This document shows positions 26,661-57,956 of a stretch of 64,000 nucleotides of DNA, in pieces (positions within the stretch are counted from its first letter, which is position 1; each line of letters opens with the position of its first letter). A model generated the notes under the pieces. It saw only the letters and a program-made list of their open reading frames with translations. It was not told the origin of the DNA and made no database searches. The DNA is from Escherichia coli (GTDB taxonomy: Bacteria; Pseudomonadota; Gammaproteobacteria; Enterobacterales; Enterobacteriaceae), in NCBI RefSeq assembly GCF_046105845.1, contig NZ_CP151004.1. One strand, 5' to 3'. The translations under genes were made by a program, and so were the position numbers.

Positions 26661-27095
26661 CAGTGTTTCTCCTTTCGCCCGCCAGAGTAAAAAGCAACCG
26701 TTTACGTTAATGAAACTGTCTAAACACATGCTCGTGGAGTGCCAGTTTTTGCGAGGAAGGGGAGTTAGAGACAGGAATTGCGGAGGCAATCACATAATCG
26801 TGGTTAAACCACGAAAATGAGAAGAGAACCTGACAATGGAATTATCTGTAATTTTCTCATATTGATATTTCATTAATCATTCTGGCATGTCGCACTCTCG
26901 CTTTTAATCGTTTTTATCTGGATAGCGCTCTTTTGGTCGGCAATGTTGAAATAATGAAAGCGGCACAGATTGAGGGGCAATAATTTGAACTCAGTCGCAA
27001 AATTATAATTAAAACGGTCATGCTACCTAATATATGCCCGTTTATTGCATCGCGAAATTTGAGAAGACATAACTCATTAAATGAAAGGGATGCAA

Positions 27096-32275: not shown

Positions 32276-33676
32276 TTAATCCATCTCTTCCGCTGAGGTA
32301 ATACCAGGCAGAACGTTTTCCTGTCGGTAGCCACCAGGGAGGATAATATTTAATAAAATCGCAGTTAACCCGCCAGCACAAATAGGGTTTTCAACTAGTA
32401 CATATATAGAGGCTGGCAATATTTTAAAAATTTCGGGATCGTAGGAGACGCCAAGTCCTAAACCTAAAGAAGTGGCGACAATAAGTGTTTCTCGGCGCTT
32501 TAAACCGTTGGTGATGATGATGCGAATCCCAGCGATAGCAATCATGGAAAACATCAACGTCATTGCGCCTCCCAGAACTGCAGAGGGTATGGTTGTGAAG
32601 AAGCCGCCAATCATCGGAAACAAGCCGAGGATAACCAGCATTACCGCGATGGTTCGCCCGACATAACGTGAAGCGACGCCAGTCATCTGAATAACCCCAT
32701 TATTTTGCGCAAACGTGGTTAAGGGTAATGAACCGACAGCGGAGGCGATAACAGAAACCAGACCATCTGCCAGCACGCCGCCTTTCAGTCGGGACTGATA
32801 CTCTTCCCCCTGAATAGGGCGGCGAGAAACCATTGCCGTGGCGGTGATATCGCCGACAGCTTCCAGCACGCTAAGCAAATAAATCGTGCCAACCACCAGG
32901 AACTGATGGAAGCTGAAACTAAACCCGTATTTGAACGGATGCGGGATGGTGATTAACGGCAAATTGCGCATACTGCTGAAATCCACCATACCCAGGCATA
33001 ACGACACGATATAACCGACGCAAAGGCCAATGGCGATCCCTCCCATGCGTAGCAACGGACTGCGACAGCAGTTAAAGCCGATCACCACAATCAAAACCAA
33101 TAAACCAACGCCGAGATGTTCGTAATTGCCGAACGTACCGCTGCTTTTGGCTGCAAATCCTCCACCAAAATCGATAATGCCGACTTTAATCAGGCTTAAG
33201 CCGATCATCAGTACCACAATACCGCTGACAGTAGGCGTAATAACCCGACGTAAATAGGGCAGGATAAAAGAAGAGCCGACAACCAGAAATGCGCCAACGA
33301 AGGAGACGCCGAGGAGCGACGACATGATTAACTCTTCGTGAAAACCGTCGCTTTTCATGCTGCTGCCCAGCGCAATCATGACCGTAACAAATGAAAAATT
33401 GACTGACTGAATTGAGAGTAGGCCAGAACCGACGATGCCGTAGCGGTTTACTTGTAACCAGGTACCAATACCAGAGGCGATCATCGCCATAGAAACAAGA
33501 TAGGCGGTTGTTTCAGCGGAAAGCTGTAAGGCCGCACCCACGATTAACGCGGGGGTTACCATCGGAACAAAAATTGCCAACAGATGGGTAATGGCACCAA
33601 CGAGAGCCTGATGAAAGGGAGGGCGATCCTCCAGTTCAAATATAAGGTCAGAACCTGCATGGTTTATATCAGACAT
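32276..33676 (-). CDS. xanQ: Xanthine permease (NAT/NCS2 family)
   Basis: Start set at MSDINHAGSDLIFELEDRPPFHQALVGA... to give 466 aa. Confidence 0.9.
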   Translation of the reverse strand: MSDINHAGSDLIFELEDRPPFHQALVGAITHLLAIFVPMVTPALIVGAALQLSAETTAYLVSMAMIASGIGTWLQVNRYGIVGSGLLSIQSVNFSFVTVMIALGSSMKSDGFHEELIMSSLLGVSFVGAFLVVGSSFILPYLRRVITPTVSGIVVLMIGLSLIKVGIIDFGGGFAAKSSGTFGNYEHLGVGLLVLIVVIGFNCCRSPLLRMGGIAIGLCVGYIVSLCLGMVDFSSMRNLPLITIPHPFKYGFSFSFHQFLVVGTIYLLSVLEAVGDITATAMVSRRPIQGEEYQSRLKGGVLADGLVSVIASAVGSLPLTTFAQNNGVIQMTGVASRYVGRTIAVMLVILGLFPMIGGFFTTIPSAVLGGAMTLMFSMIAIAGIRIIITNGLKRRETLIVATSLGLGLGVSYDPEIFKILPASIYVLVENPICAGGLTAILLNIILPGGYRQENVLPGITSAEEMD

Positions 33677-33840
33677 CCCTTCACTCCTTTTAAAGTAAAT
33701 TTGATCATCTGAATTAGTAAAATAAATTCCCACGAATTTGGGGCGCAGGACGCCTTGAGAACGGCTTATCTCATTTTCGCAGTCACTATTTAGTCATCGT
33801 TCAAACAGAGAAACAGGCCGCCGAAGCGGCCATTTATTAT

Positions 33841-36711
33841 TTATATTTTTTCCAGCGCAGTGAGTATTTTCTCCGGTGTGAAATGCCATTCGCGTAACCA
33901 GATGCCGCAGGCATCGTGAATTGCGGTAGCAATCGCCGGAGCTGCGCCATTTACACCGATTTCCGAGATCGATTTCGCCCCGAACGGGCCGACTTTATCG
34001 TCGCTCGGCACCAGCACAGCGCGGAAATCACGCGGAATATCGCCTATTTTCGGTGCGCCGTAACTGCGTAAATCACGCGTTAACGGGTGACCTTCGGCGT
34101 CATAAATGATTTCTTCGCTCATACTGTGGCCGATTGCACGAAGGGTGGCACCGTAGATTTGTCCCAACGCTAACTCTGGATTGACCGGTGTACCGCAATC
34201 CAGCAAGGCGTAGAATTTATCCAGGCGGATTTCACCCGTACGCGTGTTGACGGCAACTTCAGCAAAGTTTGCGCCATACGGGAAGGCGAAATCAGGCGTG
34301 ATATAACTGCCAGTTCCCACCAGTGAACCAAAGCCTGTGCCGGTTTCGCCTTTATGGGCAATATCCCCGAAACTAACTTCGCCTTTCTTGCCGCGTACGA
34401 CGCCCGGCGTTGCTAGTTGGACATCTGCCACTGGCTCACCCAACATTTGCGCACCGTGGAACAGAATTTTCTCCCGCAGATTTTCTGCTGCCAAACGCGC
34501 CGCGTTACCCGAGAAGCAAGTACCGGACGAGGCATATGCGCCTTTATCAAACAACGCATGATCGGTATCACCGGAGATAACATGCACGTCCTGCGGTGGG
34601 CAGTGCAGCACTTCTGCTGCCAGTTTCGTCACCACGGTATCCAGACCAGTACCAATATCCGCACCGCCAGAATGAACGATAAAGGTACCGTCTGATTCCA
34701 GTTTGATCATGCAGTTAGCCTGATCGATATCCGGGATCCCTGATTTCTGCATGATAATGGCGACGCCACGACCGATGTGCCAGTCACCGTTTTGTGGTTT
34801 TGGTGAAGACCATTGGATCATCTCGCGACCCTGACGCAGGATCTCTTCCAGTGCGCAGCTGGCGGCGGAAGGAACGGAGGTCGGCGCTTTACCTTCACCG
34901 ATTGCACCGAGAATTTTCAGCTCTTGCCCTTCGTGTACCCGGTTACGTTCGATAATTTCCAGTTGGTCGATCTGTAACTGTTCAGCCAGTTCCGCTAATG
35001 CCATGGTGATAGCGAAGTTACCTTTCGGTGCGCCATAACCCTGATAAGCACCATTTGGGCAAATGTTGCTGTAGTAGGTGGTGACCTGGAAATCGACGTT
35101 ATCGCACGGATATAACGGCAGCGACAGCGCCGGTCCGTTACACGGTACGGTGAGTGAGTGGTTGCCGTAAGGGCCAGTGTTGGCGCGGAAATCCATCTTC
35201 ACTGCCGTCAGGCGACCATCTTTTTTCGCTCCCAGTTTGACGGTGACTTTCGCGACGTGACGAGAGGTGTTAGCAATAAACTCTTCTTCACGGGTGTAGC
35301 GGAACAGTACCGGACGCCCGGTCACGCAGGTTGCCCAGGCGCACACTTCTTCCAGCAGGATGTCCTGTTTGGAACCAAAACCGCCGCCAACTCGCTCTTT
35401 AATGACATGAACTTTATGCTGTTTCATGCCCACGAGGCGCGCGACCTGGCGGCGTAAGTGCCATGGTACCTGGGTGGAGGCGTGGATAACCAGACGATCG
35501 CCGTCCATACGGGTAAAGCAGATATGAGTTTCAGTCGGGCACTGCTGCGCCTGCGTTGAGTTATAGGTTCGCTCAATGATCACATCGGCATCGGCAAAGC
35601 CTTTGTCCATATCGCCGATATGACCATGAATACTGGCGGCGATATTTTTACGGGGGCGAGAACCGATCGGGAAGTTGATGATCATATGCTCGCCGCGCTG
35701 GGCTGCATGGCTGTTATCGTCTTCCAGAGTATCTGGCGCACCAGCAACATACACCACCGGTTCATCGTGCACGACAGGCGCATCTTCCGCCATTGCTTCG
35801 TCGATCGACATTACAGGTTTAAGCACTTCATATTCAACGTCGATGAGCTTCAGTGCTTCGAGCGCAATTTCTTCACTTTCTGCGACGACCGCAGCAACAC
35901 GATCGCCGACGTGACGCATTTTCTTGCCGAACATACGGCGGTCAAGCGGTGACGGTTCCGGTGCGCTCTGACCGCCCGGGGTATAGTAGATATCCGGGCA
36001 ATTCAGGTGAGTAATAACGTGAACAACGCCCGGTAAGGCTTCAGCTTTGCTGACATCCAGATGAGTAATCAGTGCGTGAGCGTGTGGGCTACGTAACATT
36101 TTAATGACGCAGGCGTCAGCCGTTACGCGGTCTTCAACATAGCAGGGTTTCGCCTGCACCATTTTCGCGGCATCAGTTTTAGGATAATGCTTACCAATGA
36201 CTTCAAGGTCATCGCGGAAAGTCGGAGCGATATCAATGGTGGCCTGCGGATTATTTTTACGTGCAACCGCCAGTTCAATGACCTGATAGTATTGTTGCCA
36301 GCCTGCATCGCGGCTGAACAAACCAGAAAGCGCGTCGTCGATCTCTTCGCGGGTCGGTGCGGCAATGCGATCGAGAAGATCGGTGATAATCAGAGCCGCA
36401 GCTGGATCGTTATAACCAGACTGCACCACGCCAACATCAACCATTGCCTGTTGAACCAGACTTAACTCGTTCCATTTGCCCAGAGACTCTGCGGTACGAA
36501 TATCTGCCTTCTCTAACTGTGCGGCGATAAGCAAGGACGCGTTAACGATATTACCGTTACAGATAATTGCGTCAGAACCGGCAAACCCGAATCCATCATC
36601 GCTGTTGCGTACAGAGTGCATTCCCATGTTAAACAACAGCTTTTGCACGTTTTCGCCTGGATTAACGGTTAGCTCCTGAGGCGCGCCATTTAAAGTAAAG
36701 TGGATGATCAT
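33841..36711 (-). CDS. xdhD: Molybdopterin-dependent hydroxylase, fused 2Fe-2S and Mo-binding domains (xanthine dehydrogenase family)
   Basis: 956-aa ORF MIIHFTLNGAPQELTVNPGENVQKLLFNMG...; N-terminal 2Fe-2S ferredoxin-like domain then aldehyde-oxidase/xanthine-dehydrogenase Mo domain. Confidence 0.9.
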   Translation of the reverse strand: MIIHFTLNGAPQELTVNPGENVQKLLFNMGMHSVRNSDDGFGFAGSDAIICNGNIVNASLLIAAQLEKADIRTAESLGKWNELSLVQQAMVDVGVVQSGYNDPAAALIITDLLDRIAAPTREEIDDALSGLFSRDAGWQQYYQVIELAVARKNNPQATIDIAPTFRDDLEVIGKHYPKTDAAKMVQAKPCYVEDRVTADACVIKMLRSPHAHALITHLDVSKAEALPGVVHVITHLNCPDIYYTPGGQSAPEPSPLDRRMFGKKMRHVGDRVAAVVAESEEIALEALKLIDVEYEVLKPVMSIDEAMAEDAPVVHDEPVVYVAGAPDTLEDDNSHAAQRGEHMIINFPIGSRPRKNIAASIHGHIGDMDKGFADADVIIERTYNSTQAQQCPTETHICFTRMDGDRLVIHASTQVPWHLRRQVARLVGMKQHKVHVIKERVGGGFGSKQDILLEEVCAWATCVTGRPVLFRYTREEEFIANTSRHVAKVTVKLGAKKDGRLTAVKMDFRANTGPYGNHSLTVPCNGPALSLPLYPCDNVDFQVTTYYSNICPNGAYQGYGAPKGNFAITMALAELAEQLQIDQLEIIERNRVHEGQELKILGAIGEGKAPTSVPSAASCALEEILRQGREMIQWSSPKPQNGDWHIGRGVAIIMQKSGIPDIDQANCMIKLESDGTFIVHSGGADIGTGLDTVVTKLAAEVLHCPPQDVHVISGDTDHALFDKGAYASSGTCFSGNAARLAAENLREKILFHGAQMLGEPVADVQLATPGVVRGKKGEVSFGDIAHKGETGTGFGSLVGTGSYITPDFAFPYGANFAEVAVNTRTGEIRLDKFYALLDCGTPVNPELALGQIYGATLRAIGHSMSEEIIYDAEGHPLTRDLRSYGAPKIGDIPRDFRAVLVPSDDKVGPFGAKSISEIGVNGAAPAIATAIHDACGIWLREWHFTPEKILTALEKI

Positions 36712-37487
36712 ACGGCTTCCTCCCCAGCCTGTTGGCAGTCGGCATACAGGTCGGCTACCAGAACTCCCGTGATATAGCGTTTATAGGCCACGCTGCCCCG
36801 CAAATCTTCCTGCGGGAAAATGGCGTTGGCGACAGCCTGTTCAAGTGCATTGCCTTCCAGATTTTGTTTTTCAACATCGTGCAGACGCAGTGCTTTACTG
36901 GCGACGCCATCCAGCGCAATTCGCATACCGTCGTGGTCTGTCATTGCAACGGCTGCCGTCACGACGGTTAAACCTGCCTGAGAACGGCTAATTTTGCGGG
37001 TCGCACAGGTGCGATACGGATCTTTAATGATAATTTCGGTTAGCAGGCGATCGCATGGGCAGGCCAGGTAGTCCTCGATTGACAGCGTTTCGCCGTTGCC
37101 AAAAACCAGTTCAGCATCCAGTGCCAGCAGGACGGGAAGCAGCACCGACTCTTCCTGCCGGGCGGCGATTTCACCACCAATGGTCGACTGATTACGAACA
37201 TGGCGAGAGTAGACAAAGCCGAGGGCTTCACGCAGTGCTGCAGGAATAAATCGCGCATCACGCAGTGGCTGCAAGCGAGACATTGCACCAATCCGCAGTG
37301 CACCGTTATCCCAGTCAACCCAGTCCAGTTCCAGATCCTGTAAGGAAATGGCAATCTTTTTATCGGTACGGGTTGGTGTAGCGTTGAGTTTGCTGCCCCC
37401 GGCGAACCAGACGGCTTCATCCTGGTAGCGGCGCTTCAGTTCCAGCGCCTGTTCGACAGAGTCGGGCCTGAAAAATTGTTCAATCAT
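36708..37487 (-). CDS. ygfM: FAD-binding subunit of molybdopterin hydroxylase (CoxM/XdhB-like)
   Basis: 259-aa ORF MIEQFFRPDSVEQALELKRRYQDEAVWFAGGSKL...; stop overlaps the xdhD start. Confidence 0.88.
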   Translation of the reverse strand: MIEQFFRPDSVEQALELKRRYQDEAVWFAGGSKLNATPTRTDKKIAISLQDLELDWVDWDNGALRIGAMSRLQPLRDARFIPAALREALGFVYSRHVRNQSTIGGEIAARQEESVLLPVLLALDAELVFGNGETLSIEDYLACPCDRLLTEIIIKDPYRTCATRKISRSQAGLTVVTAAVAMTDHDGMRIALDGVASKALRLHDVEKQNLEGNALEQAVANAIFPQEDLRGSVAYKRYITGVLVADLYADCQQAGEEAV

Positions 37488-37537
37488 CTTCTTTCCTTAT
37501 TTAACCCTCTTCCCTACGGGAAGAGGGTATTTGTCAT

Positions 37538-38866
37538 TTATGCCAGCGCATCCATCCGACGCCACATACTGGCAGCGGCTTTTCTGGCTTGCGCATAAAT
37601 GGAATCGCAATCGAAGTTAAACTGACGGTCTTCATAGACCATCACACCATTGACCATCACGCTGTGAACGCTGCCTGAGCCCATACCGAAAGCGATATGC
37701 CCGGCGATATTGTCTGCCAGCAGCGGCGTCGGCGAGTTGTAATCGCAAATGGTTAAATCGGCTTTGTAACCGGCTTCCAGAAGGCCAAATTTCGCGCCAA
37801 AATTGCGGCTCATCAGTTCGTTGCCGTTAGCCAGTGCTTTGGCAAAACTGTCAGGCCACAGCGGACCACCCGCATCGCGATGTTTAAAGAAGGCAAATTT
37901 CATCTCTTCAAACATGTCCGAACCAATGCCGTCCGTTCCCAACGCCAGATTGCGGATGTCGCTAAGGTGATGGTTGTAGCCGACATGGTTGTTCATGTTT
38001 GAACGGGCGTTATGCACCAGGAACGCATCGCGCTGATTGAGTAGGGCGATGTCATCTTTCGACAAGTACAGCCCATGAGCGACCAGCGTTTTGCTGTCGA
38101 TGAGATCGAATTGCGCCAGTCGTGCCAGCAGGTCTTTGCCGTACCAGTGGTGACTGTAGGAAACGTCATAAAGGTCTTCCGCAGCGTGAATATGCAAACC
38201 ACGACCTGTGGCTTTCACGGCTTCACGCAGCATCTCCAGACCGGCATCCGGCACGGTAAACGGCGCGTGAGCGCCGATATGTGCTTCCACCAGATACGGC
38301 TCGGTTGTTGCTTTCTTCGCCTTATCAATCTGACGGGCGAAGCGGATGTTTTCTTCTACACCTTCCTGCAACTCTTTGATGCCGTTGTTACGGTCAGTAG
38401 TTTCAAAACAGGTCATCGCGCGCAGGCCAACTTTTAAAAATGCGTTGCGCAATGTGGAGAGCGACCTGCCGATATACGCCGGAGAGGCATGGTGATCGAT
38501 AACCGATGTACATCCGCTCTTAATTGCTTCCAGGGAACAAATCAGTCCGCTGTAATAGAGCGACTCTTCATCAAGGGCGCGATCGAGTCGCCACCAGAGA
38601 TTTTTCAGCGTTGAGATGAAATCCGGGCAGGGGGCGATGTTTGCCATAATTCCGCGGGAAAGTCCCGAGTAAAAATGGTTGTGCGAGCAGACAATTCCCG
38701 GCATCACAATCCGACCATGCATCTCTTTGTAGCTGGCATCGGGGTAGCGTTGCGTCAGGGCATCGCCGATAGCGACAATCACATCATTTTCGATGGCGAT
38801 ATCAACGCCTTCCTGCACTTTCGCCGGGTGTAACTGCACTGCGGTGACATTCTTCAGAATCAACAT
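37538..38866 (-). CDS. ssnA: Aminohydrolase (amidohydrolase superfamily, chlorohydrolase-like)
   Basis: 442-aa ORF MLILKNVTAVQLHPAKVQEGVDIAIENDVIVAIGDAL...; HNH metal-binding motif (CSHNHFYS). Confidence 0.9.
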   Translation of the reverse strand: MLILKNVTAVQLHPAKVQEGVDIAIENDVIVAIGDALTQRYPDASYKEMHGRIVMPGIVCSHNHFYSGLSRGIMANIAPCPDFISTLKNLWWRLDRALDEESLYYSGLICSLEAIKSGCTSVIDHHASPAYIGRSLSTLRNAFLKVGLRAMTCFETTDRNNGIKELQEGVEENIRFARQIDKAKKATTEPYLVEAHIGAHAPFTVPDAGLEMLREAVKATGRGLHIHAAEDLYDVSYSHHWYGKDLLARLAQFDLIDSKTLVAHGLYLSKDDIALLNQRDAFLVHNARSNMNNHVGYNHHLSDIRNLALGTDGIGSDMFEEMKFAFFKHRDAGGPLWPDSFAKALANGNELMSRNFGAKFGLLEAGYKADLTICDYNSPTPLLADNIAGHIAFGMGSGSVHSVMVNGVMVYEDRQFNFDCDSIYAQARKAAASMWRRMDALA

Positions 38867-38868
38867 GA

Positions 38869-41800
38869 TTACACCTCCACACGGTCCAGCAGATAATGAT
38901 GATGCTGGTGGACATGGCTAATAATGCGGCACATATCGTTCAGCTCCGGTGGTACGTTGTTGAACTGACCTTCGCTGTCGATGTTTAACACCCAGCTTTG
39001 GTTATTCAGACGTACTCGTACCCGGCAATCTTCCACAAGGAAGCCTGGGTTGCTGCTGTTATCAAAGTCTTGCGACAGGCTGAAGACGGTGATTTTGTCT
39101 TTGTACGGTTTACCGTTCCACGGGCAGAACTGAGCGCAGTTGCCGCATTCGTTACAGTAAGCGTCGAGGTGCAGCGTCTGGAAACGGTTCTGGAAGCCAG
39201 GGACCGCAATGGATACGTTGGCGCGGTTCGGGCAGACATCCACACACTTGCTGCAAACGTAGTTACATTCAAGGCAGCGTGCGGCTTCCTGGGCGACAAA
39301 CGCGTCACGATCGTCGCTATCCACCAGGGTGATAGAGATATCGCCTTTGCGTTGATAGATTTCCGCCGGATTAACGTTGTTCCAGTATTTATCGTTCTGG
39401 TGGGAACGGATATTTTCCCGACTAAGGATGGCATCGGTCGCCCGACGCGCGGTTCCGACAGCAGCGACAATGGAGGATGGTCCGTGCTGTACGTCGCCGA
39501 TCATAAAGACGTCAGTCAGACGAGTTTCGCCATTATGGTCGACGTCTGGCCAGCCGTTTTTGTCCAGCGGCACGCCCATCGCATTCAGGGCTTCAGTATC
39601 CTGCTGTTCACCAATGGCGGTGATCAGGCTGTCTACATGCAGTGTTACTGTTTCGTTGGTTTCAACCGGACGGCGACGACCTTTCTCATCAGGTTCGCCA
39701 AGCGACATAACGCGCAAGGTTAAGGTGCCATCAGCATCGAAACGTTCCGGATTATTCAGGAAACGGAACTCCACGCCGTCGTGCAACGCTTCTTCATACT
39801 CTTCGCGCCATGCTGGCATCTCTTGCAGTGAACGACGGTAAACGACCGTTGCTTTTTCTACGCCTGGAACGCGTAACGCCGCACGAGCGCAGTCCATTGC
39901 CGTGTTACCCGCCCCGACAACGACCACATGTTTGCCCAGCTTGAGCGCTGTGCCCTTGTTGTATTCACGCAGGAAGGGGAGTGATTTCCAGACATTTTGG
40001 TTGTCGCCCGCGAGTTTCACACCGCTATTTTTATCAGTGCCGGTGGCAATCAGAACATAGTGGAAGCCCTGATTTTTTAACTGTTCAACGGTCAGATCGG
40101 GTGAGCAGCCATACTCAAATTTCACGCCGTGAGCGGCAACAAAATCAATATCGTGCTGAATTAACTCTGCAGGAATACGGAACTGAGGAATGATATTTTT
40201 CACCACGCCGCCCGCATTGGCTTCGCGTTCAAACAGCGTAACCGGATGGCCCGCTCTGGCAAGGAAGTAACCTGCTGCCAGACCCGCCGGACCTGCACCA
40301 ATCACGGCAACCGGATGGCGTGAACCAGAACCGGCTGGTTTGTGCCAGCGTTGCTTATATTCATCCCAACCTTTTTCCAGCACGACTTTTTTCAGTTCGC
40401 GGATATTCAGCGCACTGTCGTAATCCAGGCGGGTACAGTTGTATTGGCACTGGTGATCGCAAATATGACCGGTAATGGCGGGCAGGGCGTTGCGTTGGTA
40501 GATGAGTTCCAGCGCGTCGGCATAGCGGTGTTCGCCAAGCAAACGGATGTATTCCGGAATATCTTGCTTGATAGCGCAGGCAGTAACACAGGGGGCAACG
40601 TAGCAGTCGGTCAGCGGCAGGTCTTCTGCCACTTCAATACGCTCTTCTGGCTTCCAGTGTTTCTGAGTGTATTCCATGGTTAACGCGTCTGCTGCCAGTT
40701 TGTTCAGGCGTTCGACGTCAACATGGTCAAGCCCCCAGGCGTCGGAGCCTTCCAGCTCGCGCATGCAGGCACTTAAGCGCAGATAGCCGCCAGGTTTCAG
40801 CAGGTCGGTTGCCATAGTAATAGGGCGAATACCAGTATCAAAAATATCGCGGATAGTCAGCTGACTGGCACCACCGGAATAAGAAATGGGCAGTTTGCCG
40901 TCAAAGGCGCGAGAGAGAACTGCTGCAACATTGATGGAGAGCGGGAACAGAGCACGGCCTGACATATACATCTCTTCACCAGGCAGTGCGCCTTTATTGT
41001 TGATGGTGCCGAGAGTGTTAGTCAGTTTTACGCCAAAGCCGAGTGATTTTTCTTTTGCCAGTACCATCAGGCGTTCCAGCATTTCCAGCGCTTGCGTCAG
41101 CTTGAGGTCGTGATCAAATGACTCTTCTTTTAAGCCTATGTAACCGAAACCGCAGACATCGAGGATCTCACGAACACGCGCATACCCCAGTAAGGTCGGG
41201 TTGAGTTTCACAAAGGTATTGAGCCCTTTTTCTTCCAGCATGTAGCGGCAAATGGCTTCGATTTCATGCGGAGGACAGCCGTGCATGGTGGAGAGGGTGA
41301 CGCCCTGCACCATACTGGTGGGGATGCGAGCGGGTAAGGCTTGCAAGCTTTCGCGTTTTTCCTGCAATCCGTGGCGGGCTAAAAATGCGTCATCCTGGAG
41401 TAATTTATTCAGCGTATCGCGATATTGCGCGAATTTCGGATGGTCAGATGCGTCCATCATATTGTCGATGAACTGTTGCATCGGTGGTTGCTTAATACCT
41501 TCGAGGTTATAACCGACGCTCATATTAAAGATGAACGATTTACCGGAATCAGAAGGCTGGAACATCGCTTCGAGAAGGTGCAGGGCAAACCAGGCTTTGA
41601 GGTATTCATCCCAGGCTTTAAGCAGGGTAAATTCGGTAGACCATTCGGTGTTAAAGCACTCGTCTTCGGCATCGATACAGGGCTTTTCCAGCTCCAGGCG
41701 GTCAAGAATTTGGACGGTTTTTAGTTCGATGAAGCGCCCGCCAGTCAGCCAGGAAGTGACAATATTTTGCGCGAGCTGCGTGTGCGGGCCAGCGGCAGGG

Positions 41801-41967
41801 CCGACGGGAGTGGCACAGGTTTCACCGAAGACGCTAACAGTTTTACCTTTTACGGGTGAGTAAAACTGTTGCTCGGGAATACCAAAGATTGAGCGTTGTT
41901 GTTGGTATTCATCAAATATGCGCGTCAAAAGTTCCTCAAACGGAATGGGACGCATAATATCCCCCAT
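38869..41967 (-). CDS. ygfK: Large Fe-S / FAD-NAD(P) oxidoreductase (GltD-like plus DPD-like domains; annotated putative selenate reductase subunit)
   Basis: 1032-aa ORF MGDIMRPIPFEELLTRIFDEYQQQRSIFGIPEQQF...; starts 3 nt after... rather, its stop lies 3 nt upstream of the ssnA start on the same strand. Confidence 0.88.
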   Translation of the reverse strand: MGDIMRPIPFEELLTRIFDEYQQQRSIFGIPEQQFYSPVKGKTVSVFGETCATPVGPAAGPHTQLAQNIVTSWLTGGRFIELKTVQILDRLELEKPCIDAEDECFNTEWSTEFTLLKAWDEYLKAWFALHLLEAMFQPSDSGKSFIFNMSVGYNLEGIKQPPMQQFIDNMMDASDHPKFAQYRDTLNKLLQDDAFLARHGLQEKRESLQALPARIPTSMVQGVTLSTMHGCPPHEIEAICRYMLEEKGLNTFVKLNPTLLGYARVREILDVCGFGYIGLKEESFDHDLKLTQALEMLERLMVLAKEKSLGFGVKLTNTLGTINNKGALPGEEMYMSGRALFPLSINVAAVLSRAFDGKLPISYSGGASQLTIRDIFDTGIRPITMATDLLKPGGYLRLSACMRELEGSDAWGLDHVDVERLNKLAADALTMEYTQKHWKPEERIEVAEDLPLTDCYVAPCVTACAIKQDIPEYIRLLGEHRYADALELIYQRNALPAITGHICDHQCQYNCTRLDYDSALNIRELKKVVLEKGWDEYKQRWHKPAGSGSRHPVAVIGAGPAGLAAGYFLARAGHPVTLFEREANAGGVVKNIIPQFRIPAELIQHDIDFVAAHGVKFEYGCSPDLTVEQLKNQGFHYVLIATGTDKNSGVKLAGDNQNVWKSLPFLREYNKGTALKLGKHVVVVGAGNTAMDCARAALRVPGVEKATVVYRRSLQEMPAWREEYEEALHDGVEFRFLNNPERFDADGTLTLRVMSLGEPDEKGRRRPVETNETVTLHVDSLITAIGEQQDTEALNAMGVPLDKNGWPDVDHNGETRLTDVFMIGDVQHGPSSIVAAVGTARRATDAILSRENIRSHQNDKYWNNVNPAEIYQRKGDISITLVDSDDRDAFVAQEAARCLECNYVCSKCVDVCPNRANVSIAVPGFQNRFQTLHLDAYCNECGNCAQFCPWNGKPYKDKITVFSLSQDFDNSSNPGFLVEDCRVRVRLNNQSWVLNIDSEGQFNNVPPELNDMCRIISHVHQHHHYLLDRVEV

Positions 41968-42288
41968 AACCCTCTCCTTAGCTTATACAGATATCATTGA
42001 GTGACCGGTGTTGAGAAATCCGGTGGTTTAGGGGGATAGAGCAACAATCGCACCACTCTTGCCAGGTTTGGCGGGAAATATAAAAAAATGTGAGGCGGCT
42101 CGAAACTTAAGGGCTTTTTGTGAATGAACTCACAGGTGCCAAATGAGAATTAAAATCACTCCTGAAAATTATTATTGCCAGCCCATTTATCACTTTTTCT
42201 CTTTTCTCAAAATCAGTGATTCCTTATCATTATGATAAAGAGTGCCGGAAGGATTAAATATTTGAACGCAATCGTTTAACTACGTTTT

Positions 42289-42867
42289 CTAAAATTCAGT
42301 ATACCTTTTCTTCGCTGTAATAAAGTCGTCAGGAGTATCAATATCTAAAATTATTTCTGCATTTTCTATTTCGACGGAATAATGATCTCCCATAAGGAGT
42401 GCCTGACGCATATTGGTGATATTGGGACGCTGGATTGCCTGCATCAGGCATGGCTTTGATACTAAAATCGGATGGCCGGGAATGCCATTATGGAGTGGCA
42501 GTATTGCGCCATCATTTCGTAACGACCAGATTTTTCTAAAAATATCGATGGTGAGGGTAGGCATGTCACCGTGGGTGAGAAAACAATATTCTGTTTTTAC
42601 CGCGGGTACTGCGGCCTTTACTGATGTGAGTAAACCCTGCGCATAATCTGGGTTGTGAATAATAGTGATATTGCTCTGGTTCGCATAACGTTCGTGCAGT
42701 TCATTACCACGATAGCCGGTGACTAAAATAATTCGGCTACAAAACTGCAACGCATTTTTGATACTTGTATCAAGAATTGTTCCCTGTTGCCAGGGTAACA
42801 TCATTTTCCATTGCCCCATTCTTGATGATAATCCGGCAGCGGTAATTATACAGTCGATGGCTGACAT
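42289..42867 (-). CDS. mocA: Molybdenum cofactor cytidylyltransferase
   Basis: 192-aa ORF MSAIDCIITAAGLSSRMGQWKMMLPWQQG... with the MobA-like nucleotidyltransferase N-terminal motif. Confidence 0.88.
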   Translation of the reverse strand: MSAIDCIITAAGLSSRMGQWKMMLPWQQGTILDTSIKNALQFCSRIILVTGYRGNELHERYANQSNITIIHNPDYAQGLLTSVKAAVPAVKTEYCFLTHGDMPTLTIDIFRKIWSLRNDGAILPLHNGIPGHPILVSKPCLMQAIQRPNITNMRQALLMGDHYSVEIENAEIILDIDTPDDFITAKKRYTEF

Positions 42868-49140: not shown

Positions 49141-50337
49141 TTAAGGTGCTACAGCGTGTTTGCCTTCCCAGACAACTTCGCGGTAGTGCTTCACGTCTGT
49201 GTCGCCTTCAGTGCTGATAACCAGCACTACGGCATCTTTGTTCAGCGCCAGTTTTTCCATCAGGCTTTGACGTTGCGGGTGATAATGAACCGCTGCGAGA
49301 ACGCCCAAACCGACAGCGCCGGATTCACCGGAGATGATGCGCGGGTCATTGCCGTACGGATTACCCAGCACACGCATACCTAATGCGGCAACGCTGTCCT
49401 GGCAGGAGATGAATTGGGTGGCGCAGTTACGTAGGATTTCCCAGCCCAGCGGGTTAGGTTCGCCGCAGGCCAGGCCCGCCATGATGGTGGCCATATCACC
49501 GCCAACGTTGACGATGTCGCCTTTGACGCCGGAGCGATAAATACAGTCAGCTTTGTCAGGTTCAACAATAATGCTGTGCAGATTTTGCGGGCTGTAGACG
49601 TCGACCAGATAACCCAGCACACCACCGGCCATTGCACCGACACCGGCTTGCAGCAGAACGTGTGTCGGGGTTACGCCCATTTCACGCATTTGCTCGACGG
49701 CTTCATCTGCCAGTGTTGCGTAGCCTTGCATGATCCAGGTTGGGATTTTGGTGTAACCTTTCCATGCTGTGTCCTGTACCACTTCCCAACCGTGCTGCTG
49801 CGCATGTTGCATGGTCAGGCGAACGGTATCGTCATAGTTCATATCCGTGACGATGCACTCGGCACCGAGGTTCAGAATGGCGTCAACGCGTTCCTGAGCA
49901 GAACCTTTCGGCATGTAAATCACCGCATTCTGTCCGAGTTGCTGCGCTGCCCACGCCACACCGCGCCCGTGGTTGCCGTCGGTGGTGGTCGCGAAAGTCA
50001 TTTTTTCGCCGATGGCATTTTTCAGGTGCTCAAATGACAGCGTTTCGATATCAAGATGATATTTTTCACACAATAATTGAGCGATGGCGTATGCACCGCC
50101 GAGCATTTTGAAGGCGTTCAGACCGAATCGTTTTGATTCGTCTTTGACGAGAATTTTCTTCACACCAAAAAGGTTTGCGAGATCGTCCAGCGCACAAAGC
50201 GGTGTTGGGCGATAACCAGCAATTTTCTGGTGGAACTGGCGCGCCAGTTTGGCCTGGCTTTGCGAAAAGAGCGGTGATGTTTCGCCGTTGAAAAATTTGT
50301 TATCGGCGATATCAATCTTCAATGAGAAAACGGACAT
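49141..50337 (-). CDS. ygeX: Diaminopropionate ammonia-lyase (PLP-dependent)
   Basis: 398-aa ORF MSVFSLKIDIADNKFFNGETSPLF...; PLP-lysine region DESKRFGLNAFKMLGG. Confidence 0.9.
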   Translation of the reverse strand: MSVFSLKIDIADNKFFNGETSPLFSQSQAKLARQFHQKIAGYRPTPLCALDDLANLFGVKKILVKDESKRFGLNAFKMLGGAYAIAQLLCEKYHLDIETLSFEHLKNAIGEKMTFATTTDGNHGRGVAWAAQQLGQNAVIYMPKGSAQERVDAILNLGAECIVTDMNYDDTVRLTMQHAQQHGWEVVQDTAWKGYTKIPTWIMQGYATLADEAVEQMREMGVTPTHVLLQAGVGAMAGGVLGYLVDVYSPQNLHSIIVEPDKADCIYRSGVKGDIVNVGGDMATIMAGLACGEPNPLGWEILRNCATQFISCQDSVAALGMRVLGNPYGNDPRIISGESGAVGLGVLAAVHYHPQRQSLMEKLALNKDAVVLVISTEGDTDVKHYREVVWEGKHAVAP

Positions 50338-51585: not shown

Positions 51586-52060
51586 AAAGTCCCGGTAGTG
51601 GAATGACAGGCAAAGAGGTTTATTTCACTGTGACTTGCCAAAGTGATTGGTGTTTTCACAGCTATACCTGGGACTAACAATAAGTGTGCCAGAATTATCC
51701 GCGCGGCTGGAAAAGACTAATTTGACGGATAATGTGTGGGGTTGATCACAAATTGATGCCAGCTTCCGGTTGTTTGTAAAATACGAAAACGTTTGGCTTT
51801 TTTTATCGCGTTATTTATTTGCTGCTAAGTATCAGAAATAAGATAAAGGGACAGGCGATCTCTCTTCAGTTTGATAAACTCACCGCCGTAATTCTCATAT
51901 TGATATAGAAATGTGATATCTCTTCCATAATTTCATTAGAAAGTGATAAAAATCTTATGTTTTTATCAAAGCCAATTTCGCCTGAGTTAATATCATCATG
52001 ATCTATGAACCATCAACGTCTTCAATGATCGACTTTTAAGTAAGTCTGGAAGGTAAAGCT

Positions 52061-53878: not shown

Positions 53879-54358
53879 TTACTTCGTTTTCTCGCAATCC
53901 AGAACTGTATTTACAATCATCTGATACCCCGTGCAGCGACAAAGATTTCCCGCCAGTCCGCGACGAATTTCCGTAATGGTTAATGGTTTCTCGCGTGGTT
54001 TCGCCAGCATTGCTGTGGTAGCCATAATCAGGCCAGGCGTACAAAACCCGCACTGCACTGCGCCGGATTTCGCATAAGCCTGCTGAACATGAGAAAGTTT
54101 TCCGCCTTTCGCTTCACCTTCCAGCGTGCGGATCTCTTTTCCTTCAGCCCAGGCGGCAAGGTATAAGCAACTGTCTATTGCTGTGCCGTCGACCAGCACC
54201 GTACAGGCACCACATTCACCCACGCAGCACCCTTGTTTGACACTTAGCAGTCCTTGTTCGCGGAGTAATTCCGAGAGCGGCGTGCCTGGTGCGGCGTGAA
54301 GCTGAAAAGGCATCCCGTTAATGGTGCATTCGATGGTAATTGTTTCGCTGTGATTCAT
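53879..54358 (-). CDS. xdhC: Xanthine dehydrogenase 2Fe-2S subunit
   Basis: 159 aa with two Cys clusters ([11 protein letters not shown]; CGFCTPG). Confidence 0.92.
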
Positions 54359-55233
54359 TGCAATTTTCCCCCCGCCGCGGCGACGGCTTCGCTAATCACT
54401 TTTTTGGTCATCGTCTGGATGAGATGCAGACGAAACTCTTTACTGGCCCGCCATGAAGAACGCGGGGCGACATCTTGCAGGACAGATTCGCTGATAGCTT
54501 CCAGCGTTTGCAGGTTTAATGGCGCATTTTGTGCAGTCTGTTCGGCATGTTGGCAGCGAATTGGCGTTGGCGCGGCAACACCAAATGCCAGGCGTAATTC
54601 GCTGAAATTGCCGTTATCCAGTCGGCAATGTGCGGCGCAGCCAATCGTTGAAATATCCATTGCGTCGCGCATGGCATATTTAAAATGCGCGCTGCCCGCG
54701 TGTTCTTTCGGCTGGGGCGGAAAATGAAAGGCGACAAGGATTTCGTCATGCTCAAGAGACACTTTGCCCGGTCCGGTGTGAAAGCCATTAATCGGGACGA
54801 AACGAACACCGCGCGGGGAGTGGATCTCCAGTTTCGCGTCATAAATGAGCGTTGGCGTGGCAGAATCTGCGCTGGTAGCACCGTTGCAAATATTTCCACC
54901 GTAGGTAGCGACGTTACGGATCTGCGGTCCGGCAATGGATGAGGCCGCAGCACATAACGCTGGGAGATGACGTTGAGTTACAGGATCTTCAATGAGCTGG
55001 GTAAATGTCGTTGCAGAGCCGATACGTAGTGAGCCATCTTCCGCCAGCGTAATTCCCCGCAGCTCCGCCAGATTGTGAATATCAACAATATGGCGATAAC
55101 GGTCATTGTGATGGTGGAGCTGAATCAGTACGTCAGTGCCACCGGCGAGCAGTTTGGCCTGCGGGTTGTCAGCCAGCAGGTTGATGGCATCGGCAAGGGT
55201 TGCTGCGCGATGGTAAGAAGCAAAATCAAACAT
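54355..55233 (-). CDS. xdhB: Xanthine dehydrogenase FAD-binding subunit
   Basis: 292-aa [39 protein letters not shown]...; overlaps xdhC by 4 nt. Confidence 0.92.
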
Positions 55234-55243
55234 GATGTTATCC

Positions 55244-57502
55244 TCAAATCAATCCTGCCAGATGGAACTCTTCATATAACCGTTTTGGCGTCAGCGGCAG
55301 TGTATTGATTGCAACACCGGTAGCCATCTTCACCGCGTTACGAATAGCAGCGGCAACAGGAATTATTGGTGGCTCACCCAGTGACTTATGTCCGTATGCG
55401 GATTGCGGCTCATTGATTTCGACAAACGCGCTTTCCAGTTGTGGCAGATCCGGCATGGTGGGCATTTTGTAATCCAGCAGATTGGGGTTACGGACCACGC
55501 CGCTTTTCGCATCGATGATCATCTCTTCAAATAGCGCCCAGCCAATGCCCATTCCCATTCCGCCGTGTACCTGACCTTCTGCCAGCAACGGATTAAGAAT
55601 ATGGCCCGAATCATGAACGTTGAGGATGCGGTTGATGGTGACTTTGCACAGCGCAATATCGACCGTCAGATCAACAAAGGTACAGCCAAACGCCGGTGGG
55701 TTAGTGGTGGTTTTGATGGAGCTTTCAGCAGAGAGCTGCCCACCGCGTTCAGGGTGGTAGAAAGCGTCCATCGCCAAATCTTTTAAAGACATTAACGGCT
55801 CTTCCGGTCGTTCAACCAGCACGATATGGCCTTTTATCAGGGTCAGATTCATCGCTGACTGATGTAGCATGACTGCGGCGTGAGCGATGATTTTCTCTTT
55901 TATTAACAGTGCCGCACTGCGCAGCGCAGGCGCGGCAACATAGCTCTGCCGTGAGGCAAATGCGCCGGGATCGAACGGCGTAACATCGGTATCTTGTGTT
56001 GAAATAACGCGAACGTCGCTGACCGGAACCCCCACGGTTTCTGCCACCATTTGCGAGAAGACGGTGTCGGCACCCTGGCCGATTTCCGTCGCGCCGCTTT
56101 GCACGTTGATGGTTCCATCCTGATTCATCAGAAGGCGCGCGCCTGCTATTTCTACGCCGACAGGCCAGGTGTTCGAGGTGTAGCTAAAACAGGCGACGCC
56201 AACGCCGCGGCGTAAATTGCCTTGCTGGTTCTGGCACTCTGCACGGCGTTTTTCCCATTCAAAGATTTTCCGGCCTTTTTCAAGACACTCCGGCAACCCT
56301 GCGCTGTAAATACGTTTGCCTGTGAGCGGATTAGCATCTCCTTCGCGGGCGGCGTTGCGTAAACGAATTTCAACAGGATCAATACCTAACGCTGTCGCGG
56401 CGTCATCAAGCATAGACTCAACGGCAAATACGACTTGTGGCGCGCCATAACCACGCATCGCACCAGCCGAGGGGAGGTTGGTATAGCAGGTCTTTGAACT
56501 GTAAGCGTAGGCACAACGAGGATAAAGGTAAGCGACTTTATTCCCCCCTGCAGAAGCGATGGAGTGCCCGTGAGATGCATAAGCGCCGGTGTTAGACAGA
56601 ACATCCAGACTATAACCTTTCAATGTTCCGTCGCGGTTCACGCCCATTTGCCCGTCAATAGTAAAAGCGTGGCGGGTACGGGTTGCGAGGAAACACTCTT
56701 CACGGCTAAGGGAAACTTTCACCGGAATGCCGCCAAGCTTGCTGGTCAGGAATGCCGCCATTGGCTCTTCCAGTACATCCTGTTTATTACCAAAACCGCC
56801 ACCGACAAACGGTTTGATGACTCGTACGCATGACCAGGGGATATCCAGCGCCTGACCAACCACGCGGCGCACAATGTGCGGGATCTGGGTGCTGGAAACG
56901 ATGGTAATTCGCGAGTCATCTTCCATCCATGCCAGCGATGTCACGCTTTCCATGTGACAATGTTGAATGACCGGCGTCTGATAGTGCCCCTGTACCTGGT
57001 AGTCGGCGGCATCGATTGTTTGTTGGACATTGCCCGTCGACATCGTGCTTTGTTTTAGTAAATTGCCGCCGTTATGGATTGGTTCAGCGTCATCAGCCAG
57101 CGCCGCTTCTGGGGTGGTGATAACGGGTAATTCTTGCCACTCAATGCTGACCAATTGCGCCGCTTTTTCTGCCGTGAGTTCATCACGGGCCACGACGATG
57201 GCAACGGCGTCTCCATGGTGACGAACATGGCGAGTTAGCAGTGCGCGATCGGCGGTATCGCGCTTGTTTTCGTCAAGTGTCCAGGCATGCCCAGCTGTAG
57301 CGAATGGGATATCAGGCACATCTTCCCAGGTAAAAATCGCCAGTACGCCTGGTAAACTTCTGGCTTGTTCATCATTAATACTTACGGCATAACCATGTGC
57401 GATAGGGCTACGTACATATTTCGCGTAACACATGCCCGCCATAACATAATCGTCAGTATATCGTGCCCGCCCGGTGACCTTAGCAATGGCATCGACGCGC
57501 AT
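55244..57502 (-). CDS. xdhA: Xanthine dehydrogenase molybdenum-binding subunit
   Basis: Start set at MRVDAIAKVTGRARYTDDY... to give 752 aa; the track ORF extends 13 codons further upstream. Confidence 0.92.
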   Translation of the reverse strand: MRVDAIAKVTGRARYTDDYVMAGMCYAKYVRSPIAHGYAVSINDEQARSLPGVLAIFTWEDVPDIPFATAGHAWTLDENKRDTADRALLTRHVRHHGDAVAIVVARDELTAEKAAQLVSIEWQELPVITTPEAALADDAEPIHNGGNLLKQSTMSTGNVQQTIDAADYQVQGHYQTPVIQHCHMESVTSLAWMEDDSRITIVSSTQIPHIVRRVVGQALDIPWSCVRVIKPFVGGGFGNKQDVLEEPMAAFLTSKLGGIPVKVSLSREECFLATRTRHAFTIDGQMGVNRDGTLKGYSLDVLSNTGAYASHGHSIASAGGNKVAYLYPRCAYAYSSKTCYTNLPSAGAMRGYGAPQVVFAVESMLDDAATALGIDPVEIRLRNAAREGDANPLTGKRIYSAGLPECLEKGRKIFEWEKRRAECQNQQGNLRRGVGVACFSYTSNTWPVGVEIAGARLLMNQDGTINVQSGATEIGQGADTVFSQMVAETVGVPVSDVRVISTQDTDVTPFDPGAFASRQSYVAAPALRSAALLIKEKIIAHAAVMLHQSAMNLTLIKGHIVLVERPEEPLMSLKDLAMDAFYHPERGGQLSAESSIKTTTNPPAFGCTFVDLTVDIALCKVTINRILNVHDSGHILNPLLAEGQVHGGMGMGIGWALFEEMIIDAKSGVVRNPNLLDYKMPTMPDLPQLESAFVEINEPQSAYGHKSLGEPPIIPVAAAIRNAVKMATGVAINTLPLTPKRLYEEFHLAGLI

Positions 57503-57649
57503 GCAAGATTCACCCGTAGCGGTTGCTTCCCGCGCTTCCATAGAAATCCCCTCGATTTGAACATTTGGTTCTTATGGCAAAGATTTAGTCTAAGCAGGCA
57601 AGATTTACGCCAGAAACGACGATAAGCGTTAAGGGAGGAAGGAAGTGTG

Positions 57650-57697: not shown

Positions 57698-57956
57698 GGG
57701 CAGTGATACGTATCAATATGAGTGGCGATAAAATCAATGTGATAAATTGGGATTATTACGCATCAGGATGGGAAATAGGGTAAATGAGTCAGGAAATTCG
57801 ATACATCTATAGTGAATATTTTGCTGATGATACTTCCCTTTGCCAAATGAAATTAACCTCTTTCTCTATTACCGCGTTTTTCCAGAAGCAAGAGATTGGG
57901 TATCCAGAGGCTGGCTGCTATGATATGGCGTCTTGTTTTTTAAGCGAGGAAAGATT

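Follow-up and report, generated by a model that had tools for sequence, protein, structure and literature searches.

The ygfK-ssnA-ygfM-xdhD operon of Escherichia coli: probable reductive urate degradation by three enzymes, and a cysteine-less iron-sulfur domain in XdhD

The four genes ygfK, ssnA, ygfM and xdhD, which occupy positions 33841-41967 on the minus strand of a 64-kb stretch of Escherichia coli DNA (contig NZ_CP151004.1, 64,000 nucleotides; hereafter the window), very probably form a reductive operon for the anaerobic degradation of urate. Anaerobic breakdown of uric acid by the reductive ('2,8-dioxopurine') pathway would begin with three steps, each catalysed by a separate enzyme of the operon, and the genes would be transcribed from a sigma-54 promoter within the YgeV purine/urate regulon. 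In the first step, the molybdenum (Mo) subunit XdhD and the flavin adenine dinucleotide (FAD) subunit YgfM would strip the 6-oxo group of urate to give 2,8-dioxopurine, which amounts to a reaction of the xanthine-oxidase type run backwards, at another ring position. YgfK, as an NAD(P)H:2,8-dioxopurine oxidoreductase (DOPOR), would then reduce the pyrimidine ring in a reductive dearomatisation, and SsnA would open the dihydro-2,8-dioxopurine to ureidomethylhydantoin, pulling the unfavourable YgfK reduction forward. Function, pathway context and medical relevance are already published, so the operon itself is already known. We found no mention in open-access papers and bioRxiv of the loss of cysteines in XdhD, and no description there of a candidate enhancer palindrome, both of which are presented below.

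Enzymes of the reductive urate pathway

The list of open reading frames (ORFs) confirms four long ORFs on one strand, as a preliminary description of this DNA had stated, and they fill 33841-41967 exactly. All four products score 1.6-2.1 times the curated cut-offs of their NCBIfam models: YgfK (38869-41967, minus strand, 1032 aa) reaches 1777 bits with TIGR03315 (cut-off 835), SsnA (37538-38866, minus, 442 aa) 735 bits with TIGR03314 (cut-off 456), YgfM (36708-37487, minus, 259 aa) 490 bits with TIGR03312 (cut-off 242), and XdhD (33841-36711, minus, 956 aa) 2120 bits with TIGR03313 (cut-off 1102). The region is the E. coli K-12 operon ygfK-ssnA-ygfM-xdhD (b2878-b2881), intact and in a slightly divergent E. 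coli lineage. It has the same genes, order, junctions, sigma-54 element, hairpin and terminator as the operon of K-12 MG1655, with DNA identities of 98.1% (ygfK), 97.4% (ssnA), 98.7% (ygfM) and 98.2% (xdhD) and no internal stops. The proteins differ from those of K-12 by 21 amino acids in total, 12 in YgfK, 8 in SsnA, none in YgfM and one in XdhD, and with 0-12 substitutions each they probably behave like their K-12 counterparts.

The anaerobic role in urate breakdown, for which the preliminary description had pointed to recent reports, is borne out by three of them: Li 2025 (PMC12507026), Liu 2025 (bioRxiv 10.1101/2025.04.24.650524) and the Liu et al. 2022 preprint. E. coli XdhD, purified with a co-purifying protein of ~30 kDa that was taken as YgfM, converts urate with NADH to 2,8-dioxopurine ('yanthine'), and YgfK together with SsnA and NAD(P)H converts 2,8-dioxopurine to ureidomethylhydantoin, SsnA hydrolysing a ring C-N bond with no removal of an amino group (Li 2025, PMC12507026). 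In the same study a delta-xdhD strain accumulates urate from xanthine and forms no 2,8-dioxopurine, while a delta-ygfK strain forms no ureidomethylhydantoin, and labelled acetate from labelled urate is absent in E. coli ygfK and ssnA mutants (Liu et al. 2022 preprint). The deletion test proposed earlier for the operon has thus been carried out in published work, and its outcome, a block of urate catabolism in the delta-xdhD, delta-ygfK, ygfK and ssnA mutants, leaves the proposed role standing. Recombinant E. coli YgfK selectively reduces 2,8-dioxopurine with NADPH, for which selenate is neither needed nor stimulating, and the same intermediate occurs in Clostridium sporogenes, where XdhAC is a selenium-dependent 2,8-dioxopurine dehydrogenase (DOPDH) (Liu 2025, bioRxiv 10.1101/2025.04.24.650524). 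Formate, AegA and YgfT are required for urate use (Iwadate and Kato, as cited in the Liu et al. 2022 preprint). The preliminary description had also spoken of a single four-gene molybdo-flavo-Fe-S hydroxylase with a dedicated aminohydrolase. This part has to be given up: according to the published biochemistry the catalysts are three and separate, and the published route is not a hydroxylation but a reduction, in which XdhD-YgfM removes the 6-oxo group of urate.

The features of XdhD and YgfM agree with the first step. Residues 187-893 of XdhD (34033-36153, minus) comprise the hammerhead and two molybdopterin-cofactor-binding domains by Pfam (Ald_Xan_dh_C 6e-31, MoCoBD_1 4e-72, MoCoBD_2 6e-68), and the PDB matches include 4-hydroxybenzoyl-CoA reductase (4-HBCR), carbon monoxide dehydrogenase (CODH) and xanthine dehydrogenase (XDH). 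In a BLASTP alignment with the XdhA encoded in the same window, E917 of XdhD, in 'KSISE', lines up with the 'KSLGE' motif of XdhA, and from this motif alignment we take E917 to be the equivalent of the bovine catalytic E1261. Two insertions are seen in XdhD relative to XdhA, at residues 599-609 (34894-34926) and 316-360 (~35632-35766). The 11-residue insertion is specific to XdhD and carries E606 (codon 34894-34896), a residue that XdhA does not have and that was proposed to orient urate (Li 2025, PMC12507026). YgfM, identical in sequence to K-12 YgfM, matches FAD_binding_5 (1e-19) and, weakly, CO_deh_flav_C (5e-4), and keeps the AGGS and GGEI motifs.

XdhD-YgfM shares with the XdhABC/Rhodobacter-type XDH the fold of the Mo domain, the catalytic Glu and the family of the FAD subunit, and XdhABC is itself encoded in the window (53879-57541). 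XdhD differs from XdhABC in acting reductively, at C6 of urate, and in having the Fe-S domain fused to the Mo subunit. The older name of XdhD, which makes it a second xanthine/hypoxanthine oxidase working oxidatively in purine salvage, draws on 30% sequence identity with XdhA over the Mo domains and on the retained catalytic Glu, as well as on homologs labelled 'hypoxanthine oxidase'. However, the delta-xdhD strain still uses up xanthine and accumulates urate, whereas a delta-xdhA strain does not consume xanthine, and the product of XdhD is 2,8-dioxopurine and not xanthine (PMC12507026). With the E606-bearing insertion also missing from XdhA, we consider an oxidative salvage role barely credible.

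YgfK was at first described as an Fe-S/flavin electron module, and such a module is indeed present. Pfam calls Fer4_20 (residues 453-533) and a Pyr_redox_2 FAD/NAD(P)H module (552-839) at 39451-40611 (minus), a combination that GltD and NfnB share with the N-terminal half of dihydropyrimidine dehydrogenase (DPD). Downstream of these, two motifs of the CxxCxxCxxxCP type, recognised from the positions of the cysteines and from weak Fer4 Pfam matches, point to 2x[4Fe-4S] at residues 898-948 (39124-39276, minus); their cysteines (898, 901, 905, 908, 912, 938, 941, 944 and 948) fall in columns that are nearly invariant in 70 homologs. The electron module is not the whole protein, since the first ~440 residues are predicted to form a substrate-reducing barrel that binds flavin mononucleotide (FMN). 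Pfam and PDB sequence searches explain YgfK only from ~436 to 955, with matches including NfnA, GltD and DPD, and Pfam calls no domain in the N-terminal barrel region. An AlphaFold2 (AF2) model of this region, with a mean predicted local distance difference test (pLDDT) score of 95, was compared by Foldseek, and the top PDB matches were pig DPD and class 2 dihydroorotate dehydrogenases (DHODHs), with probability 1.00, E values of ~1e-10 to 1e-9 and template modelling (TM) scores of ~0.5-0.6. Residues 1-440 (40648-41967, minus) are accordingly described here as a predicted FMN-type TIM barrel of the DPD/DHODH kind and the presumed substrate site. For residues 1-445, 1443 relatives were collected and 70 aligned, and C231, in 'TMHGCPP', is at least 90% conserved in these 70 homologs. 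We presume, at the level of the motif only, that the DPD general-acid cysteine C671 is a possible counterpart of C231.

Residues 436-843 of YgfK align to residues 63-499 of DPD (1h7x). Because the YgfK barrel precedes this module, whereas the DPD barrel follows it, the modelled architecture of YgfK is that of a domain-permuted DPD, in the order FMN barrel, Fer4_20, FAD/NAD(P)H and 2x[4Fe-4S]. The two enzymes, DPD/PydA and YgfK, share their chemistry, an FMN barrel that acts on a ring of the uracil type, a Fer4_20/FAD/NADPH module resembling GltD, and a 2x[4Fe-4S] domain; they differ in domain order, in the barrel, whose identity of ~15% lies below Pfam detection, and in the substrate, which is a purine for YgfK. 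An FMN barrel of the DPD type fits a substrate-reducing YgfK rather than a mere electron module. In the literature, the N- and C-terminal parts of YgfK were called 'domains of unknown function' (Liu 2025, bioRxiv 10.1101/2025.04.24.650524), and an FMN site was inferred from modelling, with the DPD analogy (Li 2025, PMC12507026).

SsnA has the motifs H62-N-H64 and H227-A-A-E230 and, judged from its sequence, is a metal-dependent amidohydrolase whose deaminase-type scaffold appears to have been turned to ring opening. With other family models it scores 157 bits (N-ethylammeline chlorohydrolase), 114 bits (8-oxoguanine deaminase) and 26 bits (dihydropyrimidinase). SsnA thus plays the role that dihydropyrimidinases and hydantoinases (PydB, HyuA) have elsewhere, a PydB-like ring hydrolysis after reduction; by sequence, in contrast, it stands with the ATZ/TRZ chlorohydrolase/deaminase branch and not with the dihydropyrimidinases, and it breaks a ring C-N bond with no release of ammonia. 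Of 7 informative foreign loci, 6 have ssnA directly after ygfK, and three of these six have no XDH-family gene within 10 kb (four other foreign loci, too short or without DNA, were left out of this comparison), and in Paludibacterium the order of the four genes is identical to that of E. coli. The ygfK-ssnA pairs without XDH genes, together with the fold of YgfK, therefore point to separate catalysts.

These observations also bear on the possibility that all four products form one enzyme system, in which YgfK feeds electrons to the Mo centre of XdhD and SsnA is attached, or, in a weaker form, in which the YgfK reductase also wires XdhD. The four genes are most likely co-transcribed and are co-regulated, XdhD has no [2Fe-2S] ligands of its own, which makes an external carrier attractive, and the Cys motifs of YgfK would be enough for up to four [4Fe-4S] clusters; moreover, the old three-subunit 'selenate reductase YgfK/YgfM/YgfN' annotation came from genetic work that found similar behaviour for the genes (Bebien 2002, as cited in later work). 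Nevertheless, YgfK alone reduces 2,8-dioxopurine with NADPH (bioRxiv 10.1101/2025.04.24.650524), XdhD is active with only the ~30 kDa partner co-purified, and C. difficile has a PydA homolog in place of YgfK (PMC12507026). Since YgfK also has a DPD-type substrate barrel to itself in the model, and pairs of ygfK and ssnA exist with no XDH gene within 10 kb, a single four-protein system is improbable.

Still less probable is the function given by the database annotation, in which YgfK, YgfM and XdhD are a selenate reductase and SsnA a selenium-metabolism protein. The RefSeq and NCBIfam names carry this function, the genes adjoin the selenium-cofactor genes yqeB and yqeC, and the genetics of Bebien 2002, as cited in later work, pointed the same way. 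On the other hand, YgfK activity neither requires selenate nor rises with it (bioRxiv 10.1101/2025.04.24.650524), each step now has a defined purine substrate and product, and Haft and Self argued that the selenium link lies in a selenium-dependent maturation of the Mo enzymes and not in selenate detoxification. The homologous DOPDH of C. sporogenes does depend on selenium, through SelD (bioRxiv 10.1101/2025.04.24.650524), a feature of that enzyme; at the E. coli locus yqeB, yqeC and mocA are adjacent. Selenate reduction as the primary function is largely refuted.

Several points weigh against the three-enzyme reductive pathway as set out here. The cofactor of YgfK is disputed, being NAD(P)H in one study (PMC12507026) and NADPH only in the other (bioRxiv 10.1101/2025.04.24.650524), and so is the product of YgfK alone, with none found without SsnA in the former and a product found in the latter. 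No kinetics have been published. The enzymatic conversions in the literature were done with K-12 and Nissle proteins (PMC12507026; bioRxiv 10.1101/2025.04.24.650524), and the assayed proteins are not those of this strain, whose YgfK and SsnA carry the 12 and 8 substitutions relative to K-12. In addition, the canonical Mo-[2Fe-2S]-[2Fe-2S]-FAD wire appears impossible in XdhD, so its NADH-driven activity would as yet have no structural explanation.

The N-terminal domain of XdhD

XdhD had been described as a fused 2Fe-2S/Mo subunit. The homology holds, as an end-to-end alignment joins residues 3-154 to the nicotinate dehydrogenase small subunit of the 2x[2Fe-2S] type (3hrd_D, E=1.9e-16), other family members align as well, and Pfam matches Fer2_2, although not Fer2. 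The ligands do not hold, since all eight cysteines are replaced. In these pairwise alignments, and in a MAFFT alignment with XdhC and a distant ortholog, the eight ligand columns of XdhD read D38, A44, D47 and S59 for one cluster and S98, N101, S133 and D135 for the other, so that residues 1-160 (36232-36711, minus) appear to be a cysteine-less relic of a 2x[2Fe-2S] domain. In contrast, the XdhC encoded in the same window keeps all eight Fe-S cysteines. Cysteines are absent from K-12 XdhD up to residue 190, and the XdhD of the window has C51 alone in its N-terminal domain; F51C (TTT to TGT, codon 36559-36561) is the only amino acid difference from K-12, and it does not fall in a ligand column. 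C51 occurs in 2 of 120 XdhD cluster representatives, and VCSW7, the closest genome, has F at this position.

The same non-Cys residues are held in the eight ligand columns by 117-120 of the 120 representatives, which are 74-100% identical to XdhD, and within residues 1-160 none of the 120 exceeds three cysteines. The cysteine-less proteins come from Escherichia, Shigella, Trabulsiella, Edwardsiella, Morganella, Hafnia, Serratia, Buttiauxella, Photobacterium, Paludibacterium and others. Across genera the pseudo-Fe-S domain is 71% conserved, compared with 80% for the Mo part; with this conservation, and with 52 nucleotide changes but a single amino acid change relative to K-12, we rejected the idea that xdhD is a decaying gene. 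The next relatives of XdhD, ~50% identical (in metagenomic loci L005 and L010, the latter encoding protein P0399), keep all eight cysteines as well as E606. Since these relatives keep the ligands, the loss of cysteines is, as far as the alignments go, derived and specific to the clade of E. coli-type XdhD. The limits of this clade are drawn from the 120 representatives together with two orthologs from metagenomes: the profile search showed a gap in identity from 74% to 49%, mostly returned members of the same clade and gave one Cys-containing ortholog, P0399, and two of the three sequences in the profile alignment are cysteine-less. The genes of the Cys-containing orthologs follow a ygfM-like gene, in clusters with ygfK, ssnA, ygeY, ygeX, hyuA and ygeW. 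As these orthologs too share clusters with YgfK, the presence of YgfK does not track the loss of cysteines.

A difference is also observed in the FAD subunit. YgfM proteins encoded beside cysteine-less XdhD have 257-259 aa, compared with 296-304 aa beside Cys-containing orthologs, and are thus ~40 residues shorter; the short YgfM is without a segment of ~28 residues that is found in XdhB and in the longer partners (L005 15633-16547; L010 9114-10004). The shortening may reflect co-evolution with the loss of the clusters. A further protein, P0277, of 1215 aa and standing for 43 sequences, contains both FAD_binding_5 and the XdhD domains. It may be a genuine fusion of ygfM and xdhD at their ATGA overlap, or else an artefact of gene calling or frameshifting that recurs.

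To our knowledge, all xanthine-oxidase-family enzymes characterised so far use two [2Fe-2S] clusters to span the distance from FAD to the pterin. With no Cys ligands, E. coli-type XdhD would therefore have no canonical path for electrons from FAD to Mo. This suggests, as a tentative proposal to which we give slightly less than an even chance, that E. coli-type XdhD-YgfM belongs to the xanthine oxidase family, lacks both [2Fe-2S] clusters and has an electron route not known in the family, in which case the conserved cysteine-less domain would survive as a spacer beside a shortened FAD subunit. Our estimate is set at this level because the sequence evidence for the missing ligands is strong; it is held down by the functional consequence, which is a prediction, and by the chance that specialists know of the loss beyond the searchable literature. 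Electrons may reach Mo through an external Fe-S partner (YgfK, or the co-regulated YgfS/YgfT), through a rearranged geometry of FAD and Mo, or by a purine-purine ping-pong exchange of the oxo group. Supply of clusters in trans by the XdhC of the window was considered and is unlikely, as the relic domain would occupy that position in the fused protein.

In the published commentary on this pathway YgfM is named 'the electron-transfer module', and the donor is listed as an open question only for the clostridial enzyme. That enzyme, XdhAC (DOPDH) of C. sporogenes, shares with XdhD the interconversion of urate and 2,8-dioxopurine and the position in the pathway, and is a selenium-linked Mo hydroxylase accompanied by genes of the yqeB/yqeC type; it differs in having no FAD subunit of the YgfM type and no use of NADH or NADPH, and is described with Fe-S binding domains.

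Transcription and a candidate YgeV palindrome

The ygfK promoter is assigned to a sigma-54 -24/-12 element at 42040-42055 (minus), TGGTGCGATTGTTGCT, which ends 72 nt upstream of the ygfK ATG. It equals, letter for letter, the sigma-54 site OS31 that chromatin immunoprecipitation sequencing (ChIP-seq) gave to ygfK in K-12 (Bonocora 2015, PMC4591121), and the 321-nt region upstream of ygfK has only 3 substitutions relative to K-12. The K-12 ChIP-seq sites of ygeW, xdhA and ygfT are likewise unchanged here (51676-51691, 57597-57612 and 27034-27049, respectively). The assignment rests on identity with the ChIP-seq sites and not on a consensus scan, as sigma-54-like matches in the window are at chance level (13, compared with 13.8 in shuffles). 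Scans of the window for sigma-70 promoters (7 vs 7.6) and terminators (13 vs 10.3) were also no better than shuffles, and of the hairpins from the consensus scan we kept two with a meaningful position. A second sequence at ~42135, TGGCACCTGTG, was rejected as a sigma-54 site for its wrong -12 spacing. An Rfam scan of 33600-42400 at E<=1 gave no match, so that neither the 5' leader nor the gaps contain a known riboswitch or small RNA (sRNA).

The packing of the genes is less uniform than was first described. Direct reading of the sequence shows that ygfM and xdhD overlap by 4 nt (ATGA), as stated in the preliminary description; the junction of ygfK and ssnA, given there as a 3-nt gap, is TAA-TC-ATG with a spacer of 2 nt, and a gap of 50 nt between ssnA and ygfM had gone unmentioned, so that the spacing of the operon is not uniformly tight. 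One of the two retained hairpins lies in this gap, at 37504-37528 (minus), with a perfect 11-bp stem, a 3-nt loop and -19.9 kcal/mol. Its sense strand has no U-tract, and the ribosome-binding site of ygfM comes next. The hairpin is retained in K-12 (L003 4800-4824) with pairing preserved, the closing pair being G-U there and A-U in the window, and the same gap in Paludibacterium holds a stronger hairpin of unrelated sequence (L009 14437-14508). It may be an element of transcript stability or processing that separates the expression of ygfK-ssnA from that of ygfM-xdhD. The other hairpin, at 33816-33831 (minus), 10 nt past the xdhD stop, resembles an intrinsic terminator, GGCCGCTTCGGCGGCC followed by TGTTTCTCTGTTT, being GC-rich with a T-rich tail, and its K-12 copy is identical. 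The list for the YgeV iModulon includes all four genes, and YgeV, a sigma-54 activator, is encoded in the window. The promoter, the tight junctions, the terminator and the co-regulation together indicate that the four genes are most likely a single transcription unit.

A shared-word search found TATCA-N3-TGATA to be common to the DNA upstream of all four sigma-54 elements, with none in shuffles. The copy upstream of ygfK, at 42225-42237, ~180 bp upstream of the sigma-54 promoter, is a candidate enhancer (upstream activating sequence, UAS) palindrome, TATCATTATGATA, with the extended perfect form TTATCATAATGATAA. Allowing up to one mismatch, the 64-kb window contains 8 matches compared with 1.46 expected, a number reached in 0 of 100 shuffles, and five of the eight lie 125-305 bp upstream of the promoters of ygfK, ygeW (two copies), xdhA and ygfT; these copies, of the form T(A/C)TCA-N3-TGA(T/G)A, are at 42225-42237, 51893-51905, 51991-52003, 57732-57744 and 26855-26867. 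The GC-rich locus of the betaproteobacterium Paludibacterium has 5 copies compared with 0.15 expected, and four of them (L009 1156-1168, 2956-2968, 9769-9781 and 21224-21236) are placed 120-185 bp upstream of sigma-54-like elements before yqeB, a permease gene, ygfK and ygeW. Because this layout matches that expected of the enhancer-binding protein of the cluster, the palindrome is a candidate binding site for YgeV. Both organisms have an extra copy 276 nt inside ygeX/dpaL (window 50049-50061; Paludibacterium L009 23085-23097), which may have a regulatory role inside the gene or may only reflect conservation of the encoded peptide.

Genomic setting and significance

The flanks of purine transporters and guanine deaminase noted earlier were recovered. 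According to the annotation of a 99.4% identical genome, checked against the ORF list, the downstream flank carries xanQ, guaD and ghxQ, then ygfS/ygfT and uacT, and the upstream flank mocA, yqeC and yqeB, then yqeA, hyuA, ygeY, ygeX, ygeW, ygeV and xdhCBA. Genes for the pathway, for transport and for the cofactor are thus nearby (hyuA, ygeW, yqeA, ygeY, ygeX, uacT, mocA, yqeB, yqeC and ygeV), all with matching ORFs in the window.

By megablast, the operon stretch is present once per genome, annotated as ygfK, ssnA, ygfM and xdhD, in 5184 of 5426 complete E. coli genomes; the remaining 242 have no match to it. Only 23 of the 5184 are at least 99% identical to the window copy and the remainder are at 95-99%, which places the window in a minority lineage, and the best match is the soil isolate VCSW7. 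Selection appears uneven along the operon, with 52 nucleotide and 1 amino acid changes relative to K-12 in XdhD, 10 and 0 in YgfM, 59 and 12 in YgfK, and 34 and 8 in SsnA.

No other oxygen-free route of uric acid destruction by gut bacteria is known than the one that begins with this operon, which gives it medical as well as ecological relevance. A probiotic engineered to carry it already lowers serum urate in mice (Li 2025, PMC12507026). The candidate YgeV operator would offer a way to study what activates the entire purine/urate region of 23 genes. If XdhD is indeed without its clusters, the database name 'Mo/Fe-S-binding subunit' and the electron wire assumed with it would be wrong for a whole proteobacterial clade. 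The best-studied first enzyme of the pathway would then have an unexplained electron path, which would bear on the question of the physiological electron donor and on which redox partners to co-express when the pathway is engineered.

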